The notes: generated by a model from the letters alone, not told the origin. 64,000 nt of DNA from an uncultured Phycisphaerales bacterium (GCA_964542475.1 CAZIUL010000005.1:91066-155065), one strand, 5' to 3'; shown: positions 4,734-28,664, counted from the stretch's first letter. Translations and numbers: made by a program.

Positions 4734-5972
4734 ATGGCTAAATCCAACCTTGTTCCCCCACACGGCGGCGGGGATTTGAAACCGTTACTGCTCGATGGAA
4801 AAGAGCTCGGAGCAGAACTAACAAAAGCGAAGGATCTCCCCAAGGTCCTGATGACTTCCAGGGAAACCAGCGACTGTATCATGCTGGGAATAGGGGCGTT
4901 TACGCCTCTCGAAGGCTTCATGAACAAGGCGGACTGGCAGGGAGTCTGCGACAAGATGGTCATGAGCAACGGTGTTTTCTGGCCCATCCCCATCACCCTT
5001 TCCACGGACAAGGGAACCGCGGGCGAGATCTCCGACGGTTCAGAGGTCGCTCTCTGGGACGAGGAAAACAACGAGCTGATCGCCACCATGAAGGTGACGG
5101 AGAAGTACACCATCGACAAGAAGTACGAGTGCAAGTCGGTTTACACGACCGACGACACCGAGCATCCCGGCGTGGCCAAGGTAATGGATCAGAAAGACAT
5201 CAACCTTGCCGGCCCGATCAAGGTTCTCTCCGAAAGCTTCTACCCGGAAGAGTTCAAAGAGATTTACCAACGTCCTGCCGAGTCCCGGAAGATTTTCGAG
5301 GATAAAGGTTGGGTAAAAGTCGCTGCTCTCCAGCTCAGGAATCCGATGCACCGTTCTCACGAATACCTGGCCAAGATCGCCATCGAGGTGTGCGACGGCC
5401 TCTACATCCACCAGCTCGTGGGCAAGCTGAAAGCCGGCGACATTCCCGGTGACGTGCGAGTCCAAGCCATTGGAGCGCTCGTGGACAACTATTTTGTGGA
5501 CAACACCGTTGTCCAGGGCGGATACCCGATGGAGATGCGTTATGCCGGTCCTCGCGAGGCCCTGCTTCACGCGGTCTTCCGCCAGAACTACGGCTGCTCC
5601 CACCTGATCGTTGGCCGCGACCACGCGGGCGTGGGCGACTACTACGGCCCGTTCGATGCGCAAACGATTTTCAACGATATCCCCAAGGGCGCTCTCGAGC
5701 TGCAGCCGCTTCCCATCGACTGGACCTTTCACTGCTACAAATGCGGCGGGATGGCTTCCATGAAAACCTGCCCCCACGGCAAGGACGACCGCCTGCTTCT
5801 GTCCGGTACAATGGTCCGCAAGACACTGTCCGAGGGCGAAGAGCTTCCCAAAGAGTTCAGCCGTCCCGAGGTGGTTGCAATTTTGCAGGAGTACTACCAG
5901 AACCTGGATGATAAGGTCGAAGTCAAGCTTCACGGGGCTGCTACCGGCGATGTGAAGAAAGACAAAAAATAA
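4734..5972 (+). CDS. sat: Sulfate adenylyltransferase (ATP sulfurylase)
   Basis: [13 protein letters not shown] and [12 protein letters not shown] signatures of homo-oligomeric ATP sulfurylase. AGGAT ribosome-binding site 9 nt upstream. Confidence 0.95.
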
Positions 5973-6045
5973 CGGGGCTCGTTGCCTCGATGCAGAGATA
6001 CAGCATTAGTTCTAAAACAAGTTAATCTTTTGGTTTACAAATTTG

Positions 6046-6090
6046 GGGCGGATGAACCTCATCCGTCCCTCGGTTCCTAAGTTTTTGGGA
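6046..6090 (+). terminator. Possible attenuator or terminator hairpin between sat and aprB
   Basis: GGCGGATGA-acct-TCATCCGTCC stem, followed by GTTTTTGGG. Confidence 0.25.
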
Positions 6091-6099
6091 GGATTATGA

Positions 6100-6540
6100 A
6101 TGCCCAGTTATGTAATTCCTGAAAAATGTGACGGGTGCAAGGCGCTGGACAAGACCGCTTGCCAGTACGTTTGCCCCAACGATCTGATGGTTTTGGACAA
6201 GAAAACCGAGAAGGCTTACAACCAAGAGCCGGACACCTGCTGGGAGTGCCAGTGCTGCGTCAAGATCTGCCCCACCCAGGCGGTCGAGGTCAGAGGATAC
6301 GCCGACTTCATTCCCATGGGCGCGAGCGTTACCCCCTTGCGGAGTACCGACTCGATCATGTGGACGGTCAAGTTCCGCAACGGTTCCATCAAGCGTTTCA
6401 AGTTCCCCATCCGGACGACGGAAGAAGGCAAGGCAGAGCCTGCCGGTGGTTTCGACACCGGAACCGAGGATATCCATGATGCGACTCTTTACACGGAGCC
6501 GACATCGCTTGGCCTGGACAAGGTCTGGACCAGGGGCTAG
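6100..6540 (+). CDS. aprB: Adenylylsulfate (APS) reductase beta subunit
   Basis: Two [4Fe-4S] ferredoxin motifs (CDGCKAL…CQYVCP; CWECQCCVKICP) and the characteristic C-terminal AprB tail. GGAGG ribosome-binding site. Confidence 0.95.
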   Translation: MPSYVIPEKCDGCKALDKTACQYVCPNDLMVLDKKTEKAYNQEPDTCWECQCCVKICPTQAVEVRGYADFIPMGASVTPLRSTDSIMWTVKFRNGSIKRFKFPIRTTEEGKAEPAGGFDTGTEDIHDATLYTEPTSLGLDKVWTRG

Positions 6541-6642
6541 AACCGGGAACGATTGATTTTCCGGATCCGGTCGAATTGGTAGCTCATTCAACAAAAAGTA
6601 AAAATGAAAACGTAGCAGAATACAATTCATGGAGGTAGCAAA

Positions 6643-8529
6643 GTGGCCAATTTTGAAACTGTCGAAGTCACCACTGATCTGTTGATCGTGGGTGGTGGAA
6701 TGGCTTCCTGCGGCGCAGCCGTTGAAGCCTCTTACTGGGCCAAGAAAAACGGCCTGAAGGTAACCTTGGTTGACAAGGCCGGGATAGACCGCAGCGGCGC
6801 TGTCGCGATGGGGCTGTCCGCCATCAACCAGTATGTCGGCCTGAAAGACGGCGACAACACTGTGAAAGATTATGTGGATTATGTCCGCAACGACCTTATG
6901 GGCGTCGCCCGCGAGGATCTCGTTGCAAGCATCGCCCGTCACGTCGATGGAAGCGTGCATCTTTTCGAGAAGTGGGGACTCCCCATCTGGAAGGACGACG
7001 AAGGCAAGTACGTGCACGAGGGCAGGTGGCAGCTCATGATCAACGGTGAGTCGTACAAGGTCATCGTTGCCGAGGCTGCAAAGAACGCGCTGACCGAGAA
7101 CGGGCACGAGTACTTCGAGCGCGTCTACATCACCGAGCCGCTCATGGACGGTGACCGCGTTGCAGGCGCTGTCGGTTTCAGCGTACGCGACAACAAGTTC
7201 TATGTATTCAAGGCCAAGGCCGTGCTTTGCGCCATGGGCGGCGCTGTGCATGTGTTCAGGCCCAGGTCCACGGGCGAGGGTCTCGGGCGTTCCTGGTATC
7301 CTCCGTTCAACTCCGGCTCCAGCGCTTACTTCACACTGAGGGCCGGCGCCGAGATGACCTGCCAGGAAGTTCGCTTCATTCCCATCCGGTTCAAGGACGC
7401 ATACGGCCCTGTGGGCGCGTGGTTCCTGCTTTTCAAGTCCCGCGCTACCAACGCCTTCGGCGGAGAGTACATGCAGGAGCGCAGGGATGAGCTTCAGAAC
7501 TGGGCTCCATACGGGCTGGTAAAGCCGATTCCGGCAAACCTTCGCAACTGGCTCGGGATGCTCGACATCATGGAAGGCAAGGGCCCGATCTTCATGAGAA
7601 CAGAAGAAGCCATGCAAAAGATCGCGGACAAGTACAAGGACGATCCCAAGGCCCTCAAGAAGAAGAAAAAAGAGCTCGAGTCCGAGGCTTGGGAAGACTT
7701 CCTTGATATGACCATTTCCCAGGCTCACCTGTGGGCTGCCACGAATGTCCAGCCCGAGGAAAAATCCTCGGAAATCGCTGCTTGCGAGCCGTACTTCATC
7801 GGTTCCCACTCCGGCGCTTCCGGCGCCTGGGTCAGCGGCCCCGAGGACCTGGCTCCCGACGAATACTTCTGGGGCTATGCGCACATGAGCACGCTGAACG
7901 GCCTCTTCTGTGCCGGCGACGCTTCGGGCGCATCCAGCCACAAGTTCTCCTCCGGCTCGCACGCCGAGGGCAGGATCGCCGGTAAAGCGGCTGTTGCCTA
8001 CATCGTGGACAACAACTCACAGCCCAATGTGGACATGGCTGCGGTCGAGAAGATCAAAGAAGTTACATACAATCCGTTCGATCTTTTCGAGAAAAACCAG
8101 GACAAGTCCACTGACCCGACCGTGAACCCCGAGTACATCCGGCCCCGCCAGTTCATGTTCCGCCTCCAGAAGATCATGGACGAGTACGCAGGCGGCGTGT
8201 CCGCGCAGTTCAGCACCAACAAGTTCCAGCTCGAGAGAGGTATGGAGCTTCTCGCCTTCCTCAAGGAAGATTCCGAGAAGCTCGCCGCCGAAACGGGCGA
8301 CTACCACGAACTGATGAGGTGCTGGGAAGCGGTTCACCGCATGTGGCAGGCCGAGGCTCACGTGCGCACGGTTCTTTTCCGCGAGGAGACCCGTTGGCCA
8401 GGCTACTATTTCCGTTCAGACACTCCCAAGATGAGTGATGACTGGGCATGCTTTGCCAACTGCAAGTGGGATCCCAAGAGCGGCGAATGGGAGATGATGA
8501 AGAAACCCATCATCAGCATGAACCTCTAA
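6643..8529 (+). CDS. aprA: Adenylylsulfate (APS) reductase alpha subunit (FAD flavoprotein)
   Basis: FAD-binding GGGMASCGAA N-terminus. 628 aa of fumarate-reductase-family flavoprotein, immediately downstream of aprB. GTG start with a GGAGG ribosome-binding site. Confidence 0.95.
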   Translation: MANFETVEVTTDLLIVGGGMASCGAAVEASYWAKKNGLKVTLVDKAGIDRSGAVAMGLSAINQYVGLKDGDNTVKDYVDYVRNDLMGVAREDLVASIARHVDGSVHLFEKWGLPIWKDDEGKYVHEGRWQLMINGESYKVIVAEAAKNALTENGHEYFERVYITEPLMDGDRVAGAVGFSVRDNKFYVFKAKAVLCAMGGAVHVFRPRSTGEGLGRSWYPPFNSGSSAYFTLRAGAEMTCQEVRFIPIRFKDAYGPVGAWFLLFKSRATNAFGGEYMQERRDELQNWAPYGLVKPIPANLRNWLGMLDIMEGKGPIFMRTEEAMQKIADKYKDDPKALKKKKKELESEAWEDFLDMTISQAHLWAATNVQPEEKSSEIAACEPYFIGSHSGASGAWVSGPEDLAPDEYFWGYAHMSTLNGLFCAGDASGASSHKFSSGSHAEGRIAGKAAVAYIVDNNSQPNVDMAAVEKIKEVTYNPFDLFEKNQDKSTDPTVNPEYIRPRQFMFRLQKIMDEYAGGVSAQFSTNKFQLERGMELLAFLKEDSEKLAAETGDYHELMRCWEAVHRMWQAEAHVRTVLFREETRWPGYYFRSDTPKMSDDWACFANCKWDPKSGEWEMMKKPIISMNL

Positions 8530-8607
8530 GCGTTTTACAGGCTTTCGCTGTGCTGTTGCGATATGCCTTACAGCACGGCGGATAGCTTTTCAGAACGAAA
8601 CACGACA

Positions 8608-8646
8608 GTCAACAGGCGCCGTATAGGCGCCTGTTGACGCTTTTCT
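8608..8646 (+). terminator. Rho-independent terminator after aprA
   Basis: Perfect 13-bp stem GTCAACAGGCGCC-gtata-GGCGCCTGTTGAC, followed by GCTTTTCT. Confidence 0.7.
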
Positions 8647-8665
8647 GACAAGGCTGCTGAGAGCG

Positions 8666-8944
8666 ATGACTGAAAAGACGATGGAAAACTGTCCCCACTG
8701 CGATGTCAAGCTGTTGAGATGGCTGAATCCTGATGAATCTTCATGGGGGTTGGGGTATCAAAAGGTTTGCTTCAACGATGAGTGTCCATATTTCCAAAGG
8801 GGATGGAAATGGATGCAGAAGAAATACAATGTGAAAGCATCGTACCGCTTTCGCTATAACCCTGAAAACGGCGCAACAGGTCCTTTGCCGGTCTGGACTA
8901 TGACAGCGGGCAGGGGTAATATTGCCGAGGAGGCCGATGAGTAG
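8666..8944 (+). CDS. Small Zn-ribbon-like hypothetical protein (CxxC…CxxxC)
   Basis: 92-aa ORF with CPHCDV and CFNDECPYF motifs. Located between the aprA terminator and the YkgJ-like gene. Confidence 0.45.
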   Translation: MTEKTMENCPHCDVKLLRWLNPDESSWGLGYQKVCFNDECPYFQRGWKWMQKKYNVKASYRFRYNPENGATGPLPVWTMTAGRGNIAEEADE

Positions 8945-8997
8945 GCACGGCTCCTGCAGTTTCTTGACGCTCTACATTGAAAAAAACGAGGATTCCC

Positions 8998-9798
8998 ATG
9001 GATGTGATGAAGAACCTGGATAACCTGAAAAAGTCCGTGCTGAAAGACTATCCGAGAATGACGCTTGACAGCAAGTTCCGGTTCAAATGCCACCCTGGAG
9101 TCGAATGTTTCAACAGGTGCTGCGCGGACGTGAACATCTTCCTGACTCCTTACGATGTGCTCAGGATGAAGAACAGGCTCGGAATCACATCGACAGAGTT
9201 CATGAACCGCTACACAGCCCTGCCCATCGACAAGAAACAGAAATACCCGGTGGTCCTCTTCCATTTAAAGGAAGACGAAGCCAAGAGCTGTCATTTCGTG
9301 GATTCTGAAAAGGGATGCACGATTTACGAGGACCGTCCCTGGGCGTGCCGCATCTATCCGATAGGACTGGCTTCACCCAAGGAGGGGAGCGTCGAGGGAG
9401 AAGAAGAGTTCTATTTCCTGTTGAAAGAAGATGTGTGCCTGGGGCACGATGATGAATGCGAGTTCACCGTGAGGCAGTGGATCGATAACCAGGGTGTAAA
9501 CGAGCACGACGAGTTCGGAATGCTTTACAAGGAGCTCACACTGCACGATTTTTTCGAGAAGGGGGGAGAGCTTAACGCACAGCAGATGGAGATGTTCTAC
9601 ACCGCGTGCTACGATCTGGACATGTTCAAGCGTTTTGTTTTCGAGAGCTCGTTTTTGAAACGGTTCGAGGTTGAGCCCGAGGTTGTCGACGCCGCAAAAA
9701 AAGATGACGAGGCCCTGCTGAGGTTTGCTTTCAGATGGCTCAAGTTCTGCCTTTTTGGGGAAAAAACCATGAAGGTCGTGGATAAGATTAAGAAGTAG
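8998..9798 (+). CDS. YkgJ/UPF0153-family putative Fe-S/Zn-binding protein (Cx4Cx3CC motif)
   Basis: Cys cluster KCHPGVECFNRCC plus downstream CHF…C…C. ATG at 8998 with a GAGGA ribosome-binding site. The ORF-track start at 8977 is a TTG codon. Confidence 0.5.
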   Translation: MDVMKNLDNLKKSVLKDYPRMTLDSKFRFKCHPGVECFNRCCADVNIFLTPYDVLRMKNRLGITSTEFMNRYTALPIDKKQKYPVVLFHLKEDEAKSCHFVDSEKGCTIYEDRPWACRIYPIGLASPKEGSVEGEEEFYFLLKEDVCLGHDDECEFTVRQWIDNQGVNEHDEFGMLYKELTLHDFFEKGGELNAQQMEMFYTACYDLDMFKRFVFESSFLKRFEVEPEVVDAAKKDDEALLRFAFRWLKFCLFGEKTMKVVDKIKK

Positions 9799-9810: not shown

Positions 9811-9862
9811 GAAGAAAGAAAGAAGAAGAGAACCACGGATAAACACGGATTAACACGGACAA
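9811..9862 (+). repeat. Purine-rich plus CACGGAT direct-repeat element (family C, copy 1)
   Basis: GAAGAAAGAAAGAAGAAGAG followed by AACCACGGAT-AAACACGGAT-TAACACGGAC with ~10-bp periodicity. Related copies at 29913-30000 and 31288-31330. Confidence 0.6.
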
Positions 9863-9890: not shown

Positions 9891-11060
9891 ATGAATCAAA
9901 CCATGAAGATCGAGCCTGATCTGGATTTCATTCGCAATGTTCGGGGCCTTGGCGGAGATTCGTTGAAAAAGTGTTATCAGTGCGCCACATGCTCGGTGGT
10001 GTGCGAACTTTCGCCGGAGCAGAACCCGTTTCCACGCAAGGAGATGCTGTGGGCCCAGTGGGGGCTGAAGGACAGGCTCATGGCGGATCCGGATGTTTGG
10101 CTCTGCTATCAATGCGCGGATTGTTCGACTCACTGTCCGCGAGGCGCGAACCCGGGAGATGTCTTAAGCGCCGTGCGCTCCGCTGTGATCGCGGACTATG
10201 CTTTTCCGCGTTTTTTGGGCAAAGCCCTTTCTTCCCGCGCGGCTGTTCCGTTTTTATTCCTCGTTGCGATTGCAGCCATCTTTCTGATAATGTTTTTCAG
10301 TGCCCCTGATTCGGGCGGCTGGGGCCTCAACGCACCCATCCCCGAACCGGCAGGTGCCGGGTATGAAGGGGGCTATTTCGGAAACTTCCTGAGCCGCCAT
10401 ATTATTGATCCTGTTTTCATTTTCGGTTCCATCCTGATCGTGATCTGCGTGGCTTTAAGCCTCATGCGTTTCTGGAAGGACATGAAAAAGGCTTATGGAA
10501 AAGAAAACGGCCCTTCTTTCGTTTCCTGCGTCATCGAGGCCGTGAAAGAGATAATCACTCATTCATCGTTCAAGAACTGCGTTGAAAACAAACCCCGCTT
10601 CCTGTCGCATTTTCTTGTTTTTTACGGTTTCGTCGGCCTGCTCATTACCACGTCCCTGGCCTTTCTGTTGATAATCCTGGGCCATGAACCGCCCATTCCC
10701 TTGCTGCACCCGGTCAAGATTCTCGGCAACATCAGCTTTGTTGCAATCCTTGCCGGATGCCTGCTCCTGATCGTGCGAAGGCTTGGTAACAGCGACGGTT
10801 CCGTGGGCAAGGGCGGGTACACGAATACTCTTTTCCTCTCCGTTCTTTTTATGGTTGTGATGTCGGGGGGTCTGACACAAGCCGCTCGCCTTGCAGAGGT
10901 CCGACAGCTTTCATACGCGTTTTACTTCATTCACATGACAACAGTTTTTTTTCTGCTTTGGTACTCGCCCTTTTCGAAGTTTGCCCACATGTTCTACAGG
11001 ACCCTGGCCATTGTTTTCGCAAGATCCATTGGCAGGGCAAGGGCAGGAACCGGAAGCTGA
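9891..11060 (+). CDS. qmoC: QmoC-like membrane subunit (HdrC-like 2x[4Fe-4S] N-domain fused to HdrE/NarI-like heme-b membrane domain)
   Basis: CYQCATCSVVCE and CYQCADCSTHCP ferredoxin motifs, followed by about 6 transmembrane helices with conserved His. Sits immediately upstream of qmoA/qmoB. Confidence 0.7.
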   Translation: MNQTMKIEPDLDFIRNVRGLGGDSLKKCYQCATCSVVCELSPEQNPFPRKEMLWAQWGLKDRLMADPDVWLCYQCADCSTHCPRGANPGDVLSAVRSAVIADYAFPRFLGKALSSRAAVPFLFLVAIAAIFLIMFFSAPDSGGWGLNAPIPEPAGAGYEGGYFGNFLSRHIIDPVFIFGSILIVICVALSLMRFWKDMKKAYGKENGPSFVSCVIEAVKEIITHSSFKNCVENKPRFLSHFLVFYGFVGLLITTSLAFLLIILGHEPPIPLLHPVKILGNISFVAILAGCLLLIVRRLGNSDGSVGKGGYTNTLFLSVLFMVVMSGGLTQAARLAEVRQLSYAFYFIHMTTVFFLLWYSPFSKFAHMFYRTLAIVFARSIGRARAGTGS

Positions 11061-11101
11061 TGTCCCTCCGGTTATAAAGATAATTTAATATCAGGTTCTC
11101 T

Positions 11102-11134
11102 GTCCGACTTTCTTGCCGGACTTGTCGGACTTGG
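11102..11134 (+). terminator. Possible terminator hairpin after qmoC
   Basis: GTCCGAC-(15 nt)-GTCGGAC stem followed by TTGG. This is a weak call. Confidence 0.25.
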
Positions 11135-11505
11135 ATTGCATGGACGCGGCCCCTATATCCCCATTCTCATCCGCACTTTTGCTCTCTTTCATAATTTTGT
11201 ATTTAACAACAGGTTAAAGAAGAGTATCCAAGCAAAGATTTTTAGGATTTTTGTTTGAGGGGTATCTACTTTTTGTTATTTATAAAACTTTAAAATTCAT
11301 TGCGCAAATGCCATTAGTCCAGAGTGCTTCAGAACGCTTTTATGCGTGGTGCGGCCAGGATATTGGACGATATCCATGATGCGGCCCATCGATCAATCAG
11401 TGCATTAACATATTGTTTTTAACGGGGTTATGTGCTTTTAACACTGCATGGTGCCGGTGTTCCGACTCAGGCGGTGCGGCTGCATAACCACGGTGTTCCG
11501 GAGAG

Positions 11506-12816
11506 ATGCGCGGAAGCAGTCAGATGCAGATGCAGAAGGAGAAAGAAGTGACCAATTCAGAGAACCTTTCAGCAAAGCTGCTGGTGGTGGGTGGTGGAAT
11601 AGCGGGGATCACCGCTGCCCTCGAAGCCGCCGAAACAGGGCTTGATGTGGTACTCATCGAGCGAGAAGCTTATCTCGGTGGGCGCGTGGCAGCCATGAAC
11701 AAGTATTTTCCAAAGCTCTGCCCTCCCACCTGTGGGCTCGAGATCAACTTCCGCAGGCTGAGGAACAATCCCCGGATCCGCTTTTTCACTTTAACTGAGG
11801 TAAAAGGCATATCCGGCGGGAAAGGCGACTATGAAGTCACGCTTCTGGAAAACCCCCGGTTCGTGAAGGAAGACCGTCCGTTGGGTGATGATGTTGAGAA
11901 GGCCTGCGACGTCGAGAGGCCGGACAGCTTCAACTACGGAATAGGTAAGACAAAAGCACTTTACATTCCCCACGAGATGGCTTTTCCCATGCGCCATGTC
12001 ATCGATCCCGAGTACGTGAACGACGAACGCATGCAAAAATGCGTGGATGCCTGCAAGGAGGGCTCCATCGACCTGGCGATGAAACCCAGGGAGTTCACGG
12101 TCAAGACTGAGTCGATAATCTGGGCAACAGGCTGGAAGCCTTATGACGCGGCCAAGCTCGAGAACCTGGGTTTCGGGCAATACGAGAACGTGGTGACCAA
12201 CGTGATGATGGAGCGGCTGGCCGCTCCCAACGGTCCAACGGAAGGGAAGATAGTTCGGCCTTCAGATGGCGCCGAGATAAAGAGCGTGGCCTTTGTGCAG
12301 TGCGCCGGGTCGCGTGACGAGAACCACCTTCCCTACTGTTCCGCTGTTTGCTGCATGGCTTCCATGAAACAGGCATCGTATATCCGCGAGCTCTGTCCGG
12401 ATGCCGAGATCACCATCTTTTACATCGATGTGAGAGCGCCCGGCCGCCTCGAGGATGTTTATGTCAAGCTGCAGGCTGACGAGAAGATCGTTTTCCATCG
12501 AGGCAAGGTGGCCAAGGTGGAACAGCTCGATGGAAGCAAGAACTGCCTGGTAAAGGCTGAAAACACGCTTACCGGAGAGATGACCGAAAAGGAAGTCGAG
12601 CTCGTTGTCCTGGCGACCGGCATGGTGCCGAACACCGTGGATGAGCCGCCTCCTGTCGAGGTAAATCGTGATGACTTCGGCTTTCTCGTTCAGGAAGAAG
12701 GCAGCGGCGTGGTAGGAGCTGGCACTTCTGTCAGGCCGTTCGAGGTTTCCGCCACTGTCCAGGATGCAACAGGAGCGGTTTTAAAAGCGATCAGCAAGGT
12801 TAAGCCCAAGGAGTGA
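11506..12816 (+). CDS. qmoA: QmoA (HdrA-like FAD flavoprotein)
   Basis: FAD-binding VVGGGIAGITAALEAA and the HdrA-type Cys cluster CAGSRD…YCSAVCC. Overlaps qmoB by 4 nt. The true start may be an internal Met or a GTG at about 11524-11548 that is preceded by AAGGAG. Confidence 0.85.
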   Translation: MRGSSQMQMQKEKEVTNSENLSAKLLVVGGGIAGITAALEAAETGLDVVLIEREAYLGGRVAAMNKYFPKLCPPTCGLEINFRRLRNNPRIRFFTLTEVKGISGGKGDYEVTLLENPRFVKEDRPLGDDVEKACDVERPDSFNYGIGKTKALYIPHEMAFPMRHVIDPEYVNDERMQKCVDACKEGSIDLAMKPREFTVKTESIIWATGWKPYDAAKLENLGFGQYENVVTNVMMERLAAPNGPTEGKIVRPSDGAEIKSVAFVQCAGSRDENHLPYCSAVCCMASMKQASYIRELCPDAEITIFYIDVRAPGRLEDVYVKLQADEKIVFHRGKVAKVEQLDGSKNCLVKAENTLTGEMTEKEVELVVLATGMVPNTVDEPPPVEVNRDDFGFLVQEEGSGVVGAGTSVRPFEVSATVQDATGAVLKAISKVKPKE

Positions 12817-18028: not shown

Positions 18029-18061
18029 TCGTTGTGCCGGGCCGGTAAGGCCGGTGCGATT

Positions 18062-19462
18062 ATGAATATTAGTTGTCCCCGTCTCATGATCGCCGGCATG
18101 TCCGGCGATTCTGGAAAAACAATGATCACCGTAGGCCTTGCCCGGGCATTGACCGGGCAGGGCTTGACGGTTGCTACTTTTAAAAAAGGCCCCGACTACA
18201 TCGACGCTGCTTGGCTCGGCTCGGCCTCGGGAAGGGCGTGCAGGAACCTGGACACCTTTCTTGCCGAACCCGAAGCTGTAAAGCGCTCTTTCATGAGGAA
18301 CGCTCATCGTACGGGCGTCAACCTGGTCGAAGGGAACCGAGGCTTTCATGATGGAATGGATGTCGAGGGAAGCCACAGTTCCGCTGCTCTTTCAAAGCTG
18401 ATTGAATGCCCTGTGGTCCTTACGCTGGATGTCACCAAGACAACCAGGAGCGCGGCAGCGTTCGTGATCGGATCGAGGATGCTTGATCCCGGAGTGAACA
18501 TCCGCGGAGTGATCATCAACCGGGTTGCCGGGGAAAGGCACGAAAGAGTGGTGCGCCGATCGATAGAGAAACACTGCGGTGTGCCTGTCTTCGGCTCAAT
18601 ACCAAAGCTGCCTCCTGAATCCAGGATACCTTCACGCCACTTGGGCCTCATCACTCCGGGTGAGGAAGGCCGGATCCGCGAGTTGATCGATTCCCTTGGA
18701 AGACTCGCTGAAAAGCAACTGGATCTCGGCGGGTTGTTGGAAGTGGCCCAAAATGCTGCCGAGCCCGAAGGGGAAACCGGTGCGGTGCCTTTCACGGCCG
18801 ACGGTCCAAAGGTAAAAAAGGCCAGGATCTGTTTTCTGAACGATTCCGCCTTCTCTTTCTACTACCCGGAAAACCTGGAAGCGCTGGAAGAGGCCGGAGC
18901 TGAACTGGTTCCTGTTTCCGCCCTGGACGCCCAAGAGCTTCCCGGGTGCGAGGCTCTTTATGTGGGAGGCGGGTTTCCGGAAACGCACGCCGCGGACCTG
19001 GCCGATAACCGCAATTTTCGCGAAAGCCTGTTCAATGCGGCACAAAGCGGTTTGCCCGTTTATGCGGAATGCGGCGGATTGATATACATGGCCGAAAGCC
19101 TTTCCTGGAAAGGGAAGGAGTATCCCATGGCCGGTGTTTTTCCGGTGCGCATGAGGATGGAAGAGAAGCCGCAGGGTCACGGCTACACCAGGTACCTGGT
19201 GGACGAAGAAAACCCCTTCTTCGAGAAGGGCGTTGAATTGAAAGGACACGAGTTTCACTACTCCCGTATCGAAAAAGGGGAGGTGAAAAGCGTATTTGAC
19301 GTAAAACGCGGCACGGGATGCGGCAAGGGCCGCGACGGGCTGCTCAGATGGAGAGTTCTTGGAACCTATCTTCATGTTCACGCCCTCGGGTGCCCTGTTT
19401 GGGCGGATGGGATCGTGAAAGCCGCCGAAAAGTTTGGAAAGGAAAACACAACATGGGATTGA
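18062..19462 (+). CDS. dsrN: DsrN (CbiA/CobB-family amidotransferase; siroheme amidase homologue)
   Basis: N-terminal P-loop GMSGDSGKT. C-terminal glutamine amidotransferase domain with AECGGLIYM. Position after dsrABD. Confidence 0.8.
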   Translation: MNISCPRLMIAGMSGDSGKTMITVGLARALTGQGLTVATFKKGPDYIDAAWLGSASGRACRNLDTFLAEPEAVKRSFMRNAHRTGVNLVEGNRGFHDGMDVEGSHSSAALSKLIECPVVLTLDVTKTTRSAAAFVIGSRMLDPGVNIRGVIINRVAGERHERVVRRSIEKHCGVPVFGSIPKLPPESRIPSRHLGLITPGEEGRIRELIDSLGRLAEKQLDLGGLLEVAQNAAEPEGETGAVPFTADGPKVKKARICFLNDSAFSFYYPENLEALEEAGAELVPVSALDAQELPGCEALYVGGGFPETHAADLADNRNFRESLFNAAQSGLPVYAECGGLIYMAESLSWKGKEYPMAGVFPVRMRMEEKPQGHGYTRYLVDEENPFFEKGVELKGHEFHYSRIEKGEVKSVFDVKRGTGCGKGRDGLLRWRVLGTYLHVHALGCPVWADGIVKAAEKFGKENTTWD

Positions 19463-21227: not shown

Positions 21228-21545
21228 ATGGCCATTTTCGAGCATGGAGAAATAAAGATCGAGGTAGACGAAGATGGGTTCATGCAGGAACCTGAACAGT
21301 GGACCAAAGATGTTGCCGCCGCGCTGGCAACGACCGAAGGTGTTGATGAGCTGACGGATGAACACTGGAAACTTGTGGACTACTTGAGGGAGTATTACCA
21401 GGAGTTCGGTATCGCCCCCATGATCCGCAAGCTGTGCAAGAAGACAGGTTTTCCTCTCAAGAAGATCTATGAACTTTTTCCGTCAGGCCCGGCAAAAGGC
21501 GCCTGCAAGGTCGCCGGTCTTGCCAAGCCCACTGGCTGCGTCTAA
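21228..21545 (+). CDS. dsrC: DsrC (sulfur-carrier/trisulfide substrate protein)
   Basis: Ends with the diagnostic C-terminal arm CKVAGLAKPTGCV, containing both conserved Cys. AAGGAGAG ribosome-binding site 8 nt upstream of ATG 21228. Confidence 0.95.
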   Translation: MAIFEHGEIKIEVDEDGFMQEPEQWTKDVAAALATTEGVDELTDEHWKLVDYLREYYQEFGIAPMIRKLCKKTGFPLKKIYELFPSGPAKGACKVAGLAKPTGCV

Positions 21546-21802: not shown

Positions 21803-22354
21803 ATGCTGAATAGCCTATTATCGCAGAAGAAAAAAGCCATCCTTGAGAGGTGGCAGAAGCTGGTACTGGAATCTTATCCGGACGACACCGCCTCTTTTTT
21901 CAAGAAAGAGAGCGACCGGTTCAACAACCCCGTGGGGTTTACGATCAGCCATGATCTTGGTAAGCTTTTCGATAAACTGCTCGAAGAGATGGACCGGGAC
22001 GAGTTCAATAGCGATGAGTTCGTTTCCCTCATGGAGTATTTCATAAAAATACGATCCGTGCAGGGATTCAAGCCATCCCACGCGGTCTCGTTCGTTTTTC
22101 AGCTCAAAAGCGCTATCAGGGAAACCCTGGCGGACGAGATACGGGAAGGGAATGCCTGCGGGGAGCTGTGCCGGTTCGAATCGAGGCTGGACGAGGTAGG
22201 CCTTCTGGCCTTTGACTCGTACATGGAGAGCAGGGAAAAAATATTTGACTTGAGAACGAGACAGATCAAGGCCGGCAGAGAACGGCTTTTGCGAAAAGCC
22301 GGAATGTCAATGGACGAGAAAAACGAAAAGGATCAAAGAAATGGCGAGACCTGA
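21803..22354 (+). CDS. Hypothetical protein. Candidate DsrT (RsbRD-N-like), which precedes dsrMKJOP in many sulfate reducers and green sulfur bacteria.
   Basis: The call rests on position only: immediately upstream of dsrM and in the same orientation. No catalytic motifs recognised. Confidence 0.35.
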   Translation: MLNSLLSQKKKAILERWQKLVLESYPDDTASFFKKESDRFNNPVGFTISHDLGKLFDKLLEEMDRDEFNSDEFVSLMEYFIKIRSVQGFKPSHAVSFVFQLKSAIRETLADEIREGNACGELCRFESRLDEVGLLAFDSYMESREKIFDLRTRQIKAGRERLLRKAGMSMDEKNEKDQRNGET

Positions 22355-22384: not shown

Positions 22385-23419
22385 ATGATTTCGCAAGAGA
22401 ACCCTTTATCTGCAGCTCCACCCAAGAACAACAAGCTGATTTTCATGGCGGGAGGGGGCGCGGTCGTGTTCGCCCTGCTTTGGTTGATCGGACTTCTGCC
22501 GCTCATTTTCGGGGTGCTGATCCCGTACATCGCCGCTCTGGTTTTTTTTGTGGGATTCATCTCCAAGGTGACCGGCTGGGCGAAGTCCCCGGTCCCTTTC
22601 CGCATCCCCACAACCTCCGGCCAGCAGAAGTCGCTCCCGTGGATCAAGCATAGCAACCTGGAGAGCCCGCACAACCTGCGCGGCGTGATCGGCAGGATGT
22701 TCCTGGAGATCGTTCTGTTCAGGTCTTTGTTCAAGAACACCCGAACAGAGCTGAGAAGCGGGCCCAAGGTTGTGTACAGCACCAGCCTCTGGCTGTGGGC
22801 CGCTGCCATGGCGTTTCACTGGTGCTTCCTGGTCATCTTCTTGAGGCACATCAGGTTTTTCGCGGAACCGGTGCCCGGTTTCGCGCTCTTTTTGCAGGAG
22901 ATCGACGGGCTTTTCAAGCTCGGGGTGCCAACGCTTTTCTTGACGAACATCGTTATCCTGGGCGCCCTGGGGTTTCTCGTTTTCAGAAGGCTATTCGACC
23001 CGAAGATCCGCTACATCTCCCTCTTTTCGGACTACTTCGCGCTGTTCCTCATCTTGGGCATCGTGATCACGGGCATGCTGACGCGCCATGTTTTCAAGAC
23101 CGATATCGTGGAGGTGAAGAAGCTGGCCGCGGGGCTCATAACGCTCCATCCCTATGTACCCGGATCGGGCGCGATAGGTTTTTGGTTCTACGCCCATTTC
23201 TTTCTGCTCTGCTCCCTTCTGGCATACTTCCCGTTCAGCAAGCTGATGCACATGCCGGGGGTTTTTCTCAGCCCGACGAGGAACCTCGCAAACAACAACC
23301 GGGTGAAGAGGCACATAAACCCCTGGGACTATCCGGTCAAGGTGCATACCTATGAGGAGTACGAGGACGAGTTCAGGGACAAAATGAAAGCGGCTGGAAT
23401 GCCTTTGGAGAAGGAATAA
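22385..23419 (+). CDS. dsrM: DsrM (NarI-like di-heme b membrane subunit of the DsrMKJOP complex)
   Basis: Five to six transmembrane helices with conserved His. Directly followed by dsrK. Confidence 0.9.
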   Translation: MISQENPLSAAPPKNNKLIFMAGGGAVVFALLWLIGLLPLIFGVLIPYIAALVFFVGFISKVTGWAKSPVPFRIPTTSGQQKSLPWIKHSNLESPHNLRGVIGRMFLEIVLFRSLFKNTRTELRSGPKVVYSTSLWLWAAAMAFHWCFLVIFLRHIRFFAEPVPGFALFLQEIDGLFKLGVPTLFLTNIVILGALGFLVFRRLFDPKIRYISLFSDYFALFLILGIVITGMLTRHVFKTDIVEVKKLAAGLITLHPYVPGSGAIGFWFYAHFFLLCSLLAYFPFSKLMHMPGVFLSPTRNLANNNRVKRHINPWDYPVKVHTYEEYEDEFRDKMKAAGMPLEKE

Positions 23420-23421
23420 AG

Positions 23422-25074
23422 ATGTCAGACGAAAACACACCAAAAGCTGAAGAGCTCGTCCAGATCGACTTCAAGCCGTGCGGCAAGGACTGGATGGACC
23501 CTAAGGTCGAGATGAAGAAGGGCACGTTCAACTACATAGCCAACCCGAAGAGCCTGGAATACCTCGACCTCCCGTCTCTCGGCACGTGGTATCCCCTGGA
23601 CGAGGATTGGAAGCTTCCGGAAAACTGGAAGGAGACCGTTCTCAACGGCATAAGAGACCGGCTGGTGAAGTACCGGTCGTTCAAGATATTCATGGATATC
23701 TGCGTCCGGTGCGGAGCGTGCGCTGACAAGTGCCACTTCTTCATCGGCGGGGGCGATCCCAAGAACATGCCCGTGCTGCGCGCCGAGCTTTTGCGATCGA
23801 TCTACCGCAAAGAGTTCACCAAGGCGGGGAAGATATTGAGCAAGCTGGGCGGAGGCAGGGAGCTGACCCTTGACGTGATAAAGGAGTGGTTTCTCTACTT
23901 CTACCAGTGCACCGAGTGCCGTCGCTGCTCCGTGTTCTGCCCCTACGGGATCGACACGGCCGAGATAACCATGATGGGCAGGGAGCTTCTAAACCTCATC
24001 GGCGTCGGCATCGACTGGATCTGCACACCCGCCGCGAACTGCTTCCGCACGGGCAACCACCTCGGCATCCAGCCCCACGGCTTCCAGGACAGCGTGGATT
24101 TCGCGATAGACGATCTCGAGGAGATCACCGGCATCAAGGTCGATGCCCCGGTGAACAAGAAAGGCGCTGAGATACTTTTCGTGGTGCCCTCCGCCGACTA
24201 CTTTGCGGACCCGCACTACTACGGCTTTCTCGGCTACATGGCCCTGTTTCACGAGATCGGCCTGGACTATACCTTCAGCTCGTTCGCCTCGGAAGGCGGC
24301 AACTTTGGCCTTTTCCACTCGGCTGACATGATGAAGCGCCTGAACTCCAAGATCTATTCCGAGGCCAGGCGGCTCGGCGTTAAGTGGATAATCGGCGGAG
24401 AGTGCGGCCACATGTGGCGCGTTCTCCACCAGTACATGGACACGATCAGCGGCCCGGCCGATTTCCTTGAGGTGCCGGTTTCGCCATTGACAGGGACCAG
24501 GTTCGACAACGCTAGCTCCACCAAGATGGTGCACATCTGCGAGTTCACGGCCGACCTGATAAAGGAGGGCAAGCTGAACCTCGACAAGAGCCGCAACGAC
24601 AACTGGAAGGTCACCTATCACGACTCGTGCAACACGGCGCGCGCGATGGGTATCCTGGACGAGCCGCGTTATGTGATCAAAGCCGCTTGCAACCATTTTT
24701 ACGACATGCCTGAGAACACCATCAGGGAGCAGACGTTTTGCTGCGGCAGCGGTTCTGGCATAGGCACCGACGAAAACCTGGAGATGCGTATGCGCGGGGG
24801 GCTCCCGCGCGCGAACGCGGTGAAGCACGTGCACGAAAAACACGGTGTGAACCTGCTGTCATGCATTTGCGCCATAGACAAGGCAACGCTGCCCGCGCTC
24901 ATGGATTTCTGGGTTCCGGGAGTAGAGGTCGGCGCGGTGCACGAGCTTTTGGGCAACGCGCTGGTCATGAAGGGCGAGAAGAGATCCACCGACCTGCGCG
25001 GCGAGCCTTTGCCGGGCATAGAGGACGCCGAAGGCGACGAGGAAAGCCAAGAGGAGGGCAAAGCTGATGAATGA
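23422..25074 (+). CDS. dsrK: DsrK (HdrD-like catalytic subunit with CCG domains)
   Basis: Ferredoxin motifs CVRCGACADKCH and CTECRRCSVFCPYG. CCG-domain cysteines (…HDSCNTAR…FCCGSGSGIG). Confidence 0.95.
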   Translation: MSDENTPKAEELVQIDFKPCGKDWMDPKVEMKKGTFNYIANPKSLEYLDLPSLGTWYPLDEDWKLPENWKETVLNGIRDRLVKYRSFKIFMDICVRCGACADKCHFFIGGGDPKNMPVLRAELLRSIYRKEFTKAGKILSKLGGGRELTLDVIKEWFLYFYQCTECRRCSVFCPYGIDTAEITMMGRELLNLIGVGIDWICTPAANCFRTGNHLGIQPHGFQDSVDFAIDDLEEITGIKVDAPVNKKGAEILFVVPSADYFADPHYYGFLGYMALFHEIGLDYTFSSFASEGGNFGLFHSADMMKRLNSKIYSEARRLGVKWIIGGECGHMWRVLHQYMDTISGPADFLEVPVSPLTGTRFDNASSTKMVHICEFTADLIKEGKLNLDKSRNDNWKVTYHDSCNTARAMGILDEPRYVIKAACNHFYDMPENTIREQTFCCGSGSGIGTDENLEMRMRGGLPRANAVKHVHEKHGVNLLSCICAIDKATLPALMDFWVPGVEVGAVHELLGNALVMKGEKRSTDLRGEPLPGIEDAEGDEESQEEGKADE

Positions 25075-25450
25075 CAAGGGAAAAATCTTGTTCGGCCTGG
25101 TGATCTTTTTCGTGCTTTTGTCCATCCCCTTCTGGTATACGCTGGCAAGCGGGAAGCGGGGTTACTACCCCGAGATGGAAAAGGCTGCCAAGGGCGAAAA
25201 ATGCATCATGGAAAAACAGGAGATGATACCGGGGCACATGGGGCTCTTGAACGAATGGCGGGACCTTGTTGTGCGGGAAGGCAAGAGGACGCACACTGCT
25301 GAGGACGGGACCGAATACAAGATGAGCCTCACGAACACATGTCTTGACTGCCACCAGGACAAGAGCGAGTTCTGCGACAAGTGCCACGATTATCTCGGCG
25401 TAAAACCGTACTGCTGGGATTGCCATGTCGACCCAAAGGAGATCGAGTGA
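25067..25450 (+). CDS. dsrJ: DsrJ (triheme periplasmic cytochrome c)
   Basis: N-terminal membrane anchor. Three heme-binding motifs: CLDCH, CDKCH, CWDCH. Confidence 0.9.
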   Translation: MNDKGKILFGLVIFFVLLSIPFWYTLASGKRGYYPEMEKAAKGEKCIMEKQEMIPGHMGLLNEWRDLVVREGKRTHTAEDGTEYKMSLTNTCLDCHQDKSEFCDKCHDYLGVKPYCWDCHVDPKEIE

Positions 25451-26235
25451 TGGATGTGAACAGAAGAAGGTTTCTCAAGGTAGCGGGGGTCGGCGCGCTC
25501 GGGCTAGCGGGTGCTAAACCCGTGCTGGATGCCTTTTCCGATGAGGAAACGCACGAAAGCGCTCCTTCCAAGGATAAGAAGGGCAAACAGCACGCCGGAA
25601 AGAGGCTGGCAATGGCCATCGACCTGAAGAAGTTTGATGAAAACACTGCCAAGGCCTGCCGGGATGCCTGCCACATAACCCACAACGTTCCTGATTTCGG
25701 CAATGCAAAGGACGAGATCAAGTGGATCTGGACCGAGCCGTTCGGGCACGCGTTCCCGGAGCAGGAGCACGAGTTCATCGAGGATGCGCTCAAATCCGCG
25801 TCTGTGCCGGTGTTGTGCAACCACTGCGACAATCCGTCGTGTGTCAGGGTTTGCCCCACGCAGGCCACCTTTCGCAGGGATGACGGCATCGTGGTGATGG
25901 ACTGGCACAGATGCATCGGGTGCAGGTACTGCATGGCTGCATGCCCCTACGGATCCAGGAGCTTCAACTGGCGTGATCCCAGGGAGTTCATCGATAAGAT
26001 CGATCCGAAGTTTCCCACGCGGTCGCGAGGTGTCGTGGAGAAGTGCACCTTCTGCGACGAACGGCTGGCCGATGGCAAGGAACCCGCGTGCGTTGAGGCG
26101 TGCGGCAACGATGAGATGATATTCGGGGATGTCGAAGACCCCGAATCGAAGATACGGGAGGTGCTGAGTAAGCGTTTCTCGATCAGGCGTAAACCCGGGT
26201 TGGGTACGAAGCCGGAAGTATACTATCTCGTGTGA
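25450..26235 (+). CDS. dsrO: DsrO (Tat-exported ferredoxin-like Fe-S subunit)
   Basis: Twin-arginine signal NRRRFLKVAGVGALGLAG. Multiple CxxCxxCxxxCP clusters. The ATG overlaps the dsrJ stop (ATGA). Confidence 0.9.
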   Translation: MDVNRRRFLKVAGVGALGLAGAKPVLDAFSDEETHESAPSKDKKGKQHAGKRLAMAIDLKKFDENTAKACRDACHITHNVPDFGNAKDEIKWIWTEPFGHAFPEQEHEFIEDALKSASVPVLCNHCDNPSCVRVCPTQATFRRDDGIVVMDWHRCIGCRYCMAACPYGSRSFNWRDPREFIDKIDPKFPTRSRGVVEKCTFCDERLADGKEPACVEACGNDEMIFGDVEDPESKIREVLSKRFSIRRKPGLGTKPEVYYLV

Positions 26236-26242
26236 GGCAGAC

Positions 26243-27451
26243 ATGCTAGAAAAGGCGATGTTCGGAAGTAGAAGGTACTGGGCCTGGGTCGTTTTTCTGC
26301 TGGTGTTGATTGGAGTCGGCCTCCTATGCTATCTCCAGCAGCTTAGCCAGGGGCTTGGAATAACTGGAATGGGCAGGGACGTGACATGGGGATTCTACAT
26401 CGCCCAGTTCACCTTCCTGGTGGGTGTGGCAGCATCAGCCGTGATGGTGGTTCTGCCCTACTACCTGCATGACTACAAGGCGTTCGGCAAGCTCACCATC
26501 TTGGGGGAGTTTCTTGCCATTTCCGCTGTGATCATGTGCCTGCTGTTCATTTTCGCGGACCTGGGCCAGCCCCAGCGCGGCATGAACATGATACGGTTCA
26601 TGAGCCCCAAATCGGTCCTCTTCTGGGACATGATAGTGCTCAACGGCTACCTCGTGATCAACCTCGTGTTGAGCTGGAAGAGCCTTGACGCGGAGCGAAA
26701 CTCTGTCAAGCCTTCCGGGTGGTGGATCAAGCCGCTGATCATAGTATCGGTCCCATGGGCTATCAGCATCCACACGGTCACGGCAATGATCTACTGCGGC
26801 CTCCCCGGCCGTTCCTTCTGGTACACGGCCATCCTTGCCCCGCGCTTTCTCGCGTCGGCGTTCGCATCCGGCCCCGCGCTCCTGATACTGATCTGTTTCA
26901 TCCTGAAAAAGTTCACCAGGTTCGACGCGGGCAAGGAGCCCGTGCAGAAGCTAGCGGTAATTGCCACGTATGCGATGTTTCTAAACGTTTTCTTTTTCCT
27001 GCTCGAGGTGTTCGTGGCGGTTTACGGAGCCATCCCGGAGCACACTCAGCATTTCGAATACCTGTTCCTCGGCATCGGCGGGAAATCCAAGCTCGTGCCG
27101 TGGATGTGGATGGCCCAGTTCATCTCTGTGTTTGCGATAGTCATCTTCGCTGTTCCTCGGCTCAGAAAGAACGAGAACCTGCTGAAATGGGGGTGCATCG
27201 GCATCTTCGTCGCCATCTGGATAGACAAGGGGCTCGGCATGGTTGTGACCGGCTTCGTGCCTTCGCCGCTTGAGGGCGTGACAGAGTACTGGCCCACCTT
27301 CAGGGAGCTTTGCATCACGATCGGTGCCTATGCGGTGGGTGCGCTGATACTCACAGTGCTCTACAAGGTGGCGCTGGAGGTACGGGGAGAGGTTTGCAGG
27401 CCTTGCTGCGAAGAGGTGGAGCATGAAGCGACAAAGCAAACCGCACCATGA
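26243..27451 (+). CDS. dsrP: DsrP (NrfD/PsrC-like integral membrane quinone-interacting subunit)
   Basis: About 10 transmembrane helices, 402 aa. Position after dsrO. Confidence 0.9.
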   Translation: MLEKAMFGSRRYWAWVVFLLVLIGVGLLCYLQQLSQGLGITGMGRDVTWGFYIAQFTFLVGVAASAVMVVLPYYLHDYKAFGKLTILGEFLAISAVIMCLLFIFADLGQPQRGMNMIRFMSPKSVLFWDMIVLNGYLVINLVLSWKSLDAERNSVKPSGWWIKPLIIVSVPWAISIHTVTAMIYCGLPGRSFWYTAILAPRFLASAFASGPALLILICFILKKFTRFDAGKEPVQKLAVIATYAMFLNVFFFLLEVFVAVYGAIPEHTQHFEYLFLGIGGKSKLVPWMWMAQFISVFAIVIFAVPRLRKNENLLKWGCIGIFVAIWIDKGLGMVVTGFVPSPLEGVTEYWPTFRELCITIGAYAVGALILTVLYKVALEVRGEVCRPCCEEVEHEATKQTAP

Positions 27452-28664
27452 CAGCAGCGGGGAGAACGGTAACGGAACACCGGGCGCCCTGGTGGTGTGC
27501 GGGATCAACCACGCCACGGCCACGCTCTCCGAGCGTGAGCCGTTCCAGATAACCAGGCAGGACCTCATTCCCGCGCTCAAGGAGCTCGAATCCATCAGGG
27601 GCGTGAGAGAGAGCCTTGTCCTTTCCACCTGCAATCGGTTCGAGGCTTACATGGTGCTCGATGCCCACGAGGAACCGTTCACCGTGCTTCGCGATTTTTT
27701 CATCCGTTTGAAGGGGATCGATCCCAAGCCCCTGCGCAGCCTTTTCTACGTGCGCCACGAGAGCACCGCTGTCAGGCACCTTTTCCGCGTGATCGGCGGG
27801 CTCGATTCCATGGTGCTCGGAGAGTACCAGATCAAAAACCAGGTCAAGGAGGCGTACAGCGCGGCATGCAGCGTGAAAGCGCCGGGCAAGGTGCTCCACA
27901 GGCTTTTTCACGCGGCTTTCAGGACGGGCAAATCGGTACAGACACACACGGGCTTGGGCGCGGGGCGCATGTCGGTTGCAGGCATGGCTGTCGGGATAGT
28001 CGAGGAACGCCTGTCCCCTGATGATACGGTTCTGTTAATAGGGGCGAACGAGAACATTCGCATCGTTGCGGATAGGCTGAAGTCCGCCGGGTTCGAACGG
28101 TTTGTTTTCGTGAACCGGACCTCATACAAGGCCAGGAAGCTGGCAAGCCGCTACGGCGGTGAAGGGTCCGGCCTCGATGAACTGTCCGACGCGCTGAAGG
28201 AAGGGGTAGGTGCTTTGGTCAGCTGCACGAGCGCTCCCGGATTCATCGTGACGGCAGAGCAGCTCGAAGCGCTGGCTGCTGACAACCGCTGCCCCGGCCT
28301 TCTGATCGACATGGCTGTTCCCAGGGACATCGAGCGGCCGGAAACCTCTTCTTTTCCGGCGGAACTGATCGACCTCGAGGACCTCAAGGCCTGCAGGAAG
28401 AACGGAGAACAAATCCGCGAGCAGGAGCTCCCCAGGGCTGAAAGCATAGTGGAGGACAAGGTCAGCACGTTTCAGAGCTGGATGGAGAACGCTTTCGATG
28501 AGGGCACCGGAGCGCTCATCAAAGAGTACGACCGCATCAGGCTGGCACGCCTGAAAGATGCGCTTGCCTCGTTCGAGGCGAAAGACCGCGATGTGCTCGA
28601 GCGTTTCTCCCGTGACCTCATGCAGGACTTCCTCAAGGTGCCCACGCAGAACTTCACCGAGTGA
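27423..28664 (+). CDS. hemA: Glutamyl-tRNA reductase (tetrapyrrole/siroheme biosynthesis)
   Basis: Active-site LSTCNRFE motif and NADPH-binding LLIGANENIR region. Overlaps the dsrP 3' end by 29 nt. Confidence 0.85.
   Translation: MKRQSKPHHDSSGENGNGTPGALVVCGINHATATLSEREPFQITRQDLIPALKELESIRGVRESLVLSTCNRFEAYMVLDAHEEPFTVLRDFFIRLKGIDPKPLRSLFYVRHESTAVRHLFRVIGGLDSMVLGEYQIKNQVKEAYSAACSVKAPGKVLHRLFHAAFRTGKSVQTHTGLGAGRMSVAGMAVGIVEERLSPDDTVLLIGANENIRIVADRLKSAGFERFVFVNRTSYKARKLASRYGGEGSGLDELSDALKEGVGALVSCTSAPGFIVTAEQLEALAADNRCPGLLIDMAVPRDIERPETSSFPAELIDLEDLKACRKNGEQIREQELPRAESIVEDKVSTFQSWMENAFDEGTGALIKEYDRIRLARLKDALASFEAKDRDVLERFSRDLMQDFLKVPTQNFTE

Follow-up and report, generated by a model that had tools for sequence, protein, structure and literature searches.

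The 64,000-nucleotide (nt) stretch of DNA analysed here (hereafter the window; GCA_964542475.1, CAZIUL010000005.1:91066-155065) comes from an uncultured Phycisphaerales bacterium and contains the sulfate-reduction gene set Sat, AprBA, QmoABC, DsrAB, DsrC and DsrMKJOP in one run. The run extends from sat to hemA (4734-28664), and all of its genes are co-oriented on the plus strand in the order sat-aprB-aprA-orf92-CxxCxxCC-qmoC-qmoA-qmoB-dsrA-dsrB-dsrD position ORF-dsrN-dsrL-dsrC-dsrT-dsrM-dsrK-dsrJ-dsrO-dsrP-hemA, where ORF is open reading frame. The ORF list and scans with curated family models thus agree with the initial annotation of this DNA, which placed the whole pathway in one plus-strand block of 24 kb. 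The block is likely to be a long-resident chromosomal cluster for sulfate reduction, with a layout typical of its gene clade and lineage.

Gene assignments are supported by scores in bits, given against the cut-off of the curated NCBIfam model unless another model is named. The block opens with sulfate adenylyltransferase (sat, 4734-5972; NF003166, 511 vs 387) and the two subunits of adenosine 5'-phosphosulfate (APS) reductase (aprB, 6100-6540; TIGR02060, 197 vs 136; aprA, 6643-8529; TIGR02061, 905 vs 642). After two small genes, considered below, the membrane subunit of the Qmo complex (qmoC, 9891-11060; NF038018, 413 vs 300) lies ahead of qmoA (11506-12816) and qmoB (12813-15107). Both of the latter encode HdrA-like flavoproteins which score 356 and 401 bits, respectively, with the HdrA2 model, in both cases far under its cut-off of 1100; QmoB also has FlpD and Fer4 domains and a FlpD/VhuD-like tail. 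A dedicated model is lacking, and the two are named Qmo because they are adjacent to qmoC and aprBA. Dissimilatory sulfite reductase follows (dsrA, 15385-16590; TIGR02064, 571 vs 393; dsrB, 16668-17759; TIGR02066, 500 vs 342), and a gene for a small winged-helix protein of 84 amino acids at the dsrD position (17774-18028) starts 14 nt after dsrB.

The next gene encodes an a,c-diamide synthase homologue of the cobB family, assigned to sirohaem amidation (dsrN, 18032-19462; TIGR00379, 428 vs 261) with the help of its position in the dsr cluster. It is followed by a type 2 DsrL, an iron-sulfur flavoprotein linked to nicotinamide adenine dinucleotide phosphate, NADP(H) (dsrL, 19453-21177; PRK12771, 604 vs 516), and by dsrC (21228-21545; TIGR03342, 117 vs 53.5). 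The PRK12771 match spans residues 49-609 of the long DsrL ORF. The DsrL domain order is complete for type 2, with a Cys cluster at residues 41-101, GAGPAG at 147, GGGDTA at 277, CxxCxxCxxxC at 514 and 546, and a YRR motif (LILYRRTRTE) after the second Rossmann motif; YRR in the NAD(P)-binding domain is the mark of NADP(H)-specific DsrL-2 (Loffler et al. 2020, PMC7596348). Both conserved C-terminal cysteines of DsrC are present, and its tail reads GACKVAGLAKPTGCV. A putative regulator with an RsbRD_N domain (dsrT, 21803-22354; PF14361, 72.6 vs 24.3) ends 30 nt upstream of dsrM, as described for dsrT elsewhere, where the RsbRD N-terminal domain protein is encoded immediately upstream of dsrM (PMC6018805, PMC8477390). 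The membrane complex DsrMKJOP, which reduces the DsrC trisulfide, is encoded at 22385-27451 by five genes whose products all exceed the cut-offs of NCBIfam equivalogs (dsrM 483/300, dsrK 726/400, dsrJ 158/100, dsrO 305/200 and dsrP 473/350), and DsrJ has three CxxCH haem motifs at residues 92, 103 and 116. The last gene, glutamyl-tRNA reductase (hemA, 27423-28664; TIGR01035, 277 vs 210), belongs to tetrapyrrole supply for sirohaem and haems. Upstream of the block, on the minus strand and divergent from sat, is the gene for a membrane ion-translocating pyrophosphatase (hppA, 2182-4296; Pfam H_PPase, 931 bits), which also matches the NCBIfam sodium-translocating pyrophosphatase (1121 vs 1059).

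The genes named in the initial annotation were all recovered, dsrD by position, size and fold only, and it had overlooked orf92, the CxxCxxCC protein and dsrT within the block as well as the divergent pyrophosphatase upstream. In support of that annotation, the block encodes activation, APS and sulfite reduction, both membrane complexes and an NAD(P)H link. To call the block self-contained was an overstatement, as it includes neither a sulfate transporter nor an electron-input module.

To place the block among its relatives, all window proteins were compared by tblastn with 80 species loci centred on dsrA, and further loci were reached through Sat and DsrK homologues. A metagenome scan with DsrP gave no relatives; the scan with DsrK did. 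The nearest DsrA homologues (66-88%) belong to metagenome-assembled genomes (MAGs) of Planctomycetota, Zixibacteria, Ignavibacteria, Calditrichota and Acidobacteriota. Among the 52 species loci with enough downstream sequence, dsrB, dsrC, dsrM and dsrK are contiguous in 44, dsrL is present in 51, dsrT precedes dsrM in 44, and the DsrD-position gene directly follows dsrB in 48. Upstream, aprA lies no more than 10 kb from dsrA in 23 of the 54 species loci with enough sequence on that side. A chance arrangement of the genes was ruled out by the curated match obtained for each gene and by the recurrence of the order in dozens of genomes.

Among GTDB species genomes, the closest (DsrA 88%) bears the label Phycisphaerales, and the same AprA cluster at 90% identity includes a protein assigned at NCBI to a 'Planctomycetota bacterium'. 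Three related lineages share the block including qmoCAB, namely loci L006/L086/L087, loci L089/L090/L091 (DsrA 88% in both groups) and a contig with Sat at 84%. The first two groups have the order sat-aprBA-orf-CxxCxxCC-qmoC-qmoA-qmoB-dsrAB-D-N-L-C and then hemA, which lies between dsrC and dsrT in L006, L090 and L091 and downstream of dsrP in four other loci (L096, L097, L101 and L102). The Sat-84% relative also has the divergent hppA/sat pair. All relatives that could be reached, at 84-88% protein identity, possess the block, in differing neighbourhoods. The window, L006, L015, L086 and L089 have the qmo genes as CAB, and 13 other loci and L088 have them as ABC; qmoC comes first only in the Planctomycetota group and one Elusimicrobiota MAG. 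The traits specific to the lineage of the window are minor: the qmoCAB order, hemA in the block, hppA beside sat and a conserved hairpin after aprA.

The sequence derives from metagenome assemblies, where genes of different organisms could be fused by an assembly or binning error. That the contiguity arose in this way is scarcely credible. Several metagenome contigs that were assembled independently, from different samples and with different pipelines (ENA 155 kb, JGI 31-52 kb and NCBI 170 kb), carry a DsrA identical to that of the window and the same order of genes, composition is uniform, and the order is common to related lineages. The sample names, which are the sole source for this point, suggest a marine origin, apparently in the water column.

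The initial annotation had gone further and proposed a possibly transferable module. The synteny and composition checks named beforehand as able to overturn that proposal both came out against an island: composition is uniform, no signs of mobility were found in the sequence scanned, and relatives share the layout amid ordinary chromosomal genes. The GC fraction is 0.553 in the block and 0.557 outside it, and the tetranucleotide distance between the block and the remainder of the window is 0.0076, compared with 0.0075 +/- 0.0013 for equal-sized segments, 34% of which are at least as distant. The 64-kb window contains no tRNA gene, Rfam gave no match in the window at the gathering threshold or in the block at E<=0.1, and no convincing repeat pair brackets the block. 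No integrase or transposase was found by Pfam in the larger flanking ORFs, to which this search was confined; they are metabolic, envelope and regulatory genes instead.

A recently acquired, still mobile genomic island bearing sulfate respiration as a transferable unit would nevertheless draw on several observations. The same module is found in many phyla, DsrA similarity ignores phylum borders, and lateral transfer of dsrAB and its ancient spread were already concluded by Anantharaman et al. (2018, PMC6018805). The flanks also vary among related lineages. Upstream of the block are a porin, a dehydrogenase and the pyrophosphatase in the window, sulfatases and HEAT-repeat proteins in L086, and a resistance-nodulation-division (RND) efflux pump and gyrase/topoisomerase subunits in L089, and downstream in L091 are a methyltransferase, a transporter and, about 6 kb from dsrP, an IS21-type IstB helper gene (20146-20739, minus strand). 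The IstB gene is the sole mobility gene seen near any copy of the block. Such an island is nonetheless very improbable. The neighbours are ordinary chromosomal genes, as the gyrase/topoisomerase subunits in L089 illustrate, and three lineages retain qmoCAB, the aprA hairpin sequence and hemA in the block, which argues for vertical descent inside the group. The spread over many phyla fits an ancient lateral transfer of the module. The one-block layout is not a sign of recent acquisition, and a recent mobile island is unlikely because relatives share the arrangement and composition is uniform.

The enzyme families and the pathway logic of the block are those of Desulfovibrio vulgaris and Archaeoglobus fulgidus. 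In these two organisms sat, aprBA-qmoABC, dsrABD, dsrC and dsrMKJOP lie at separate loci, and to our knowledge both are without dsrL and the orf92/CxxCxxCC pair. Consolidation is well described in newly reported groups, in which the entire dsr pathway is often found in one genomic region and among which Planctomycetes are listed with dsrABCD (Anantharaman et al. 2018, PMC6018805); compared with those single-region clusters, the window adds sat-aprBA-qmo and hemA to the dsr part. DsrABDNCTMKJOP has been found in one cluster in several lineages (Neukirchen et al. 2023), and a 2024 survey recorded dsrAB in two Phycisphaerales genomes.

Close parallels are found in Kapabacteria. 'Candidatus Thermonerobacter thiotrophicus' shares with the window sat-aprBA, two hypothetical genes, qmoC and dsrAB-dsrD-dsrN-dsrL-dsrC, a layout published as sat-aprBA-hyp-hyp-qmoC and then dsrAB-dsrD-dsrN-(hyp)-dsrL-dsrC (Thiel et al. 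2019, PMC6338057), and Kapabacteria-type loci L032, L042 and L050 have the same order with homologues of every window gene. Unlike Thermonerobacter, the window has a 445-nt spacer after qmoC, then qmoA and qmoB, and only then dsrA. After dsrC the window continues with dsrT-dsrMKJOP and hemA, whereas the hot-spring Kapabacteria MAGs have dsrM2K2, with qmoAB elsewhere (PMC6338057). In an acidobacterial MAG all sulfur genes are on one scaffold with syntenic unknown genes and a dsrL-dsrC pair (Hausmann et al. 2018, PMC6018796). Five Acidobacteriota loci (L058, L064, L072, L080 and L085) carry the same genes co-oriented in one run. The Acidobacteria with this SbA2-type cluster ('Ca. Sulfotelmatobacter' and relatives) differ from the window in having qmoABC and no hemA; as a rule sat does not adjoin the other genes, dsrN is frequently absent between dsrD and dsrL, and their DsrA is no more than 67-71% identical to that of the window. 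The window is a further example of a described layout, and earlier papers already describe consolidation as typical of newer lineages with DsrD and DsrL-2, including Planctomycetes.

The most likely function of the block, judged from what is known of its families, is sulfate reduction fed by NADPH and menaquinol, and both the direction and the electron routes are predicted on that basis. Sat would convert sulfate to APS, and the divergent membrane pyrophosphatase would remove the pyrophosphate, pulling the reaction and conserving energy. AprBA would reduce APS to sulfite with electrons passing from menaquinol through QmoCAB. DsrAB would then reduce sulfite onto DsrC, giving a trisulfide, possibly with electrons from NADPH fed in by DsrL-2, and DsrMKJOP would reduce the trisulfide with electrons from quinol and release sulfide. 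DsrN and HemA are expected to supply amidated sirohaem and haem, and the DsrD-like protein and DsrT may be modulators. The groups to which the homologues of the window DsrA belong have been placed in the reductive branch in earlier work (PMC10591310, PMC6018805). DsrD and DsrL-2C beside a reductive DsrAB have been proposed as an indicator of reduction (Diao et al. 2023, PMC10591310); the window DsrL was typed as DsrL-2 by its motifs.

The same gene set might instead run in reverse or in disproportionation, taking sulfide or sulfur to sulfate via DsrMKJOP, DsrC, DsrAB, AprBA-Qmo and Sat, with DsrL passing electrons to NADP+. There is a proposed precedent in Desulfurivibrio alkaliphilus and cable bacteria, the setting would be anoxic marine water columns, and, judged by their names alone, the source samples appear to be marine water-column metagenomes. 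DsrL was initially recognised in sulfur oxidisers, and its type 2 accompanies either direction of the pathway (PMC7596348, PMC10591310). DsrD and DsrT are also present in disproportionators and D. alkaliphilus, which cannot be distinguished by gene content (PMC6018805, PMC8477390), and Hausmann et al. discussed this possibility for Acidobacteria that have the layout (PMC6018796). A CoA-disulfide-reductase/rhodanese gene, where CoA is coenzyme A, accompanies the module in related loci. Even so, we regard oxidation or disproportionation as rather unlikely. The ORFs scanned within the 64 kb include no dsrEFH, sqr or sox, the YRR motif of DsrL marks the NADPH type tied to reduction (PMC7596348), and dsrL adjoins the DsrD-position gene and dsrAB of a clade interpreted as reductive (PMC10591310). 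Transcription observed in situ for the corresponding cluster of Kapabacteria indicated reduction under anoxia, as cited in PMC10591310.

Sulfate reduction by a long-resident cluster is the reading we prefer, and the following points weigh against it. The reductive type of DsrAB is assigned from its nearest neighbours and not from a tree, and the lineage comes from MAG labels and not from marker genes in the window. The different flanks among relatives imply some rearrangement or relocation of the block. The window ORFs scanned encode neither a sulfate transporter nor an upstream electron-input complex. The DsrD-position ORF and 25 family members have no match to Pfam DsrD (PF08679) even at E<=1, the D. 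vulgaris DsvD structure (PDB 1UCR) was matched neither by phmmer nor by a 25-member profile, and an hhalign comparison of the family with 1UCR gave an E value of 0.21, in the expected register.

Other properties of the DsrD-position protein are closer to expectation. The AlphaFold2 model (pLDDT, the predicted local distance difference test, 87.8) has three helices and a two-stranded wing and matches winged-helix and Z-alpha domains; 1UCR is not among its top matches. NCBIfam gave no match for the window ORF. With a profile, 7,417 relatives were found in the database; the best 120 of these have no Pfam domain, and all of them that have a source name are called hypothetical protein. The name dsrD is used for this gene in work on Kapabacteria, Acidobacteria and further new lineages (PMC6018796, PMC6338057, PMC6018805). 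We treat its product as DsrD-like by position, size and predicted fold only, the sequence-family test having failed. Marker pipelines that use PF08679/DsrD as a marker of reduction will miss the gene of this clade.

Two genes between aprA and qmoC are a constant part of the layout. The first, orf92 (8666-8944), encodes a small Cys4 zinc-ribbon-like protein of 92 amino acids at a conserved position after aprA and has no Pfam or NCBIfam match; it corresponds to one member of the 'hyp-hyp' pair in PMC6338057. The second (8977-9798) encodes a putative metal-binding protein of 273 amino acids with a YkgJ-like CxxCxxCC domain (PF03692, 43.5 bits vs 23). Of the 23 loci with aprA in the vicinity of dsrA, 22 have orf92 adjoining aprA and the CxxCxxCC protein in its conserved position. 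The orf92 family is tiny, with 194 clusters at E<=1e-3 among 1.84 billion representatives, and a literature search for the pair found only a remark on two conserved hypothetical genes in PMC6338057. We tentatively suggest that the two proteins are accessory parts of APS reduction or of the electron transfer between Apr and Qmo, specific to the uncultured clade with DsrD and DsrL-2, because the pair accompanies aprBA in these 22 loci across many phyla, is absent from the classical models, and includes a small and dedicated family. In some orf92-family representatives (P0451, P0464, P0469, P0476, P0519 and P0521) the domain is C-terminal in proteins of 290-360 amino acids, which could be genuine fusions or the result of gene calls that extend too far. 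The 120-residue orf92 call in L086, which crosses the hairpin conserved after aprA, is probably too long.

The junctions within the block were described in the initial annotation as short or overlapping. The four overlaps it listed are correct in the ORF list (qmoA/qmoB 4 nt, dsrK/dsrJ 8 nt, dsrJ/dsrO 1 nt and dsrP/hemA 29 nt), with the caveat that start codons are uncertain and other gene callers begin qmoB 9 nt later. The description does not extend to three long gaps of 445 nt (qmoC-qmoA), 277 nt (qmoB-dsrA) and 257 nt (dsrC-dsrT).

Of the hairpins proposed earlier, the one after aprA is strong and conserved in relatives. It is a plus-strand stem-loop (8608-8638) which with its T-rich tail extends to 8646 and resembles a terminator or attenuator; the GC-rich stem has 13 bp, nine of them GC pairs, and the predicted folding energy is -30.9 kcal/mol (z -5.0). 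The core, CAGGCGCC-N4-5-GGCGCCTG, occurs once in the window and is found at the equivalent site in L086/L087 and L089/L090, with a T-rich tail in all. One compensatory pair, A:T to G:C, distinguishes the L089 hairpin, and a more distant Phycisphaerae MAG has a weaker version. The strong fold, the sequence conservation, the compensatory change and the T-rich tail support a functional terminator, attenuator or RNA-stability element. The proposed hairpin after qmoC is not supported, no significant fold being present there (z +0.4); the one after dsrC is present as a structure of borderline strength (z -2.0). No significant fold was found after hemA. Scans for consensus sigma-70 promoters and simple terminators gave counts not above those in shuffled sequence, and no promoters were called because the sigma-70 counts were no higher than in shuffles.

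The AT-rich spacer of 445 nt between qmoC and qmoA (11061-11505) is a possible internal promoter or leader, and contains no credible ORF, Rfam match or significant fold. The same gap measures about 390 nt in the Sat-84% relative and 52-73 nt in L086 and L089. A 25-nt motif in the spacer (11109-11133) is an inverted copy, with a 92% match, of a motif just downstream of hppA (2083-2107). From family knowledge, the aprA stem-loop and the long spacers before qmoA, dsrA and dsrT would probably divide the block into several transcription units, and the hairpin could yield more aprBA message (and sat message, if co-transcribed) than downstream message.

The window has further features outside the main argument. 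A tandem motif, CCACGGAT-N3-CACGGAT, follows a purine-rich AAGAAAGAAGAAGAGAA stretch at 9833-9860, 29941-29999 and 31309-31326. The CCACGGAT motif has five intergenic copies, compared with 0.24 expected, and is found only in the loci of this species; the gap from the CxxCxxCC gene to qmoC contains one of the copies. The motif may be an intergenic repeat peculiar to the species or a candidate binding site for a regulator. Downstream of the block are two near-identical segment pairs, 30034-30093/32741-32800 (90%) and 31108-31158/32634-32684 (96%), and a perfect 21-nt inverted repeat (31112-31172), all of them around two minus-strand genes. One of these genes has no family match and the other has a weak secretin match. 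The arrangement suggests a local duplication.

The minus strand at 40030-41709, 11 kb from the block, encodes a CoA-disulfide-reductase-like flavoprotein with a fused rhodanese domain. Homologues (36-42%) directly follow dsrP in several loci among L096, L097, L101, L102, L122 and L123, with hemA next in four, and another directly follows qmoC in a Phycisphaerae MAG (L088, from 20278). The protein seems to be a recurrent companion of the module, perhaps for persulfide or polysulfide handling. The region 42355-48100 encodes an HdrB/SdhE-like CCG protein, an iron-sulfur protein and a TfrA-like flavoprotein, which together resemble a fumarate reductase linked to thiol or quinol. Next comes an ADP-forming acetate-CoA ligase, and fumarate hydratase is encoded at 52549-53421; by its gene content, this set fits anaerobic fermentative or respiratory carbon metabolism. 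On the minus strand at 48206-48991, beside a PAS histidine kinase, a response-regulator receiver is fused to a glycine-cleavage H-protein-like domain of the lipoyl/biotinyl type, an unusual output domain.

The view of the pathway and of its evolution is unchanged by the block, which adds a marine, apparently water-column lineage of Planctomycetota to those with full DsrD and DsrL-2 sulfate-respiration gene sets. The sequence-conserved stem-loop after aprA is a likely regulatory break in the cluster, and the orf92/CxxCxxCC pair is a defined target in the search for new parts of the APS reductase system. For anoxic basins, the gene set is of use in attributing sulfate reduction and cryptic sulfur cycling.

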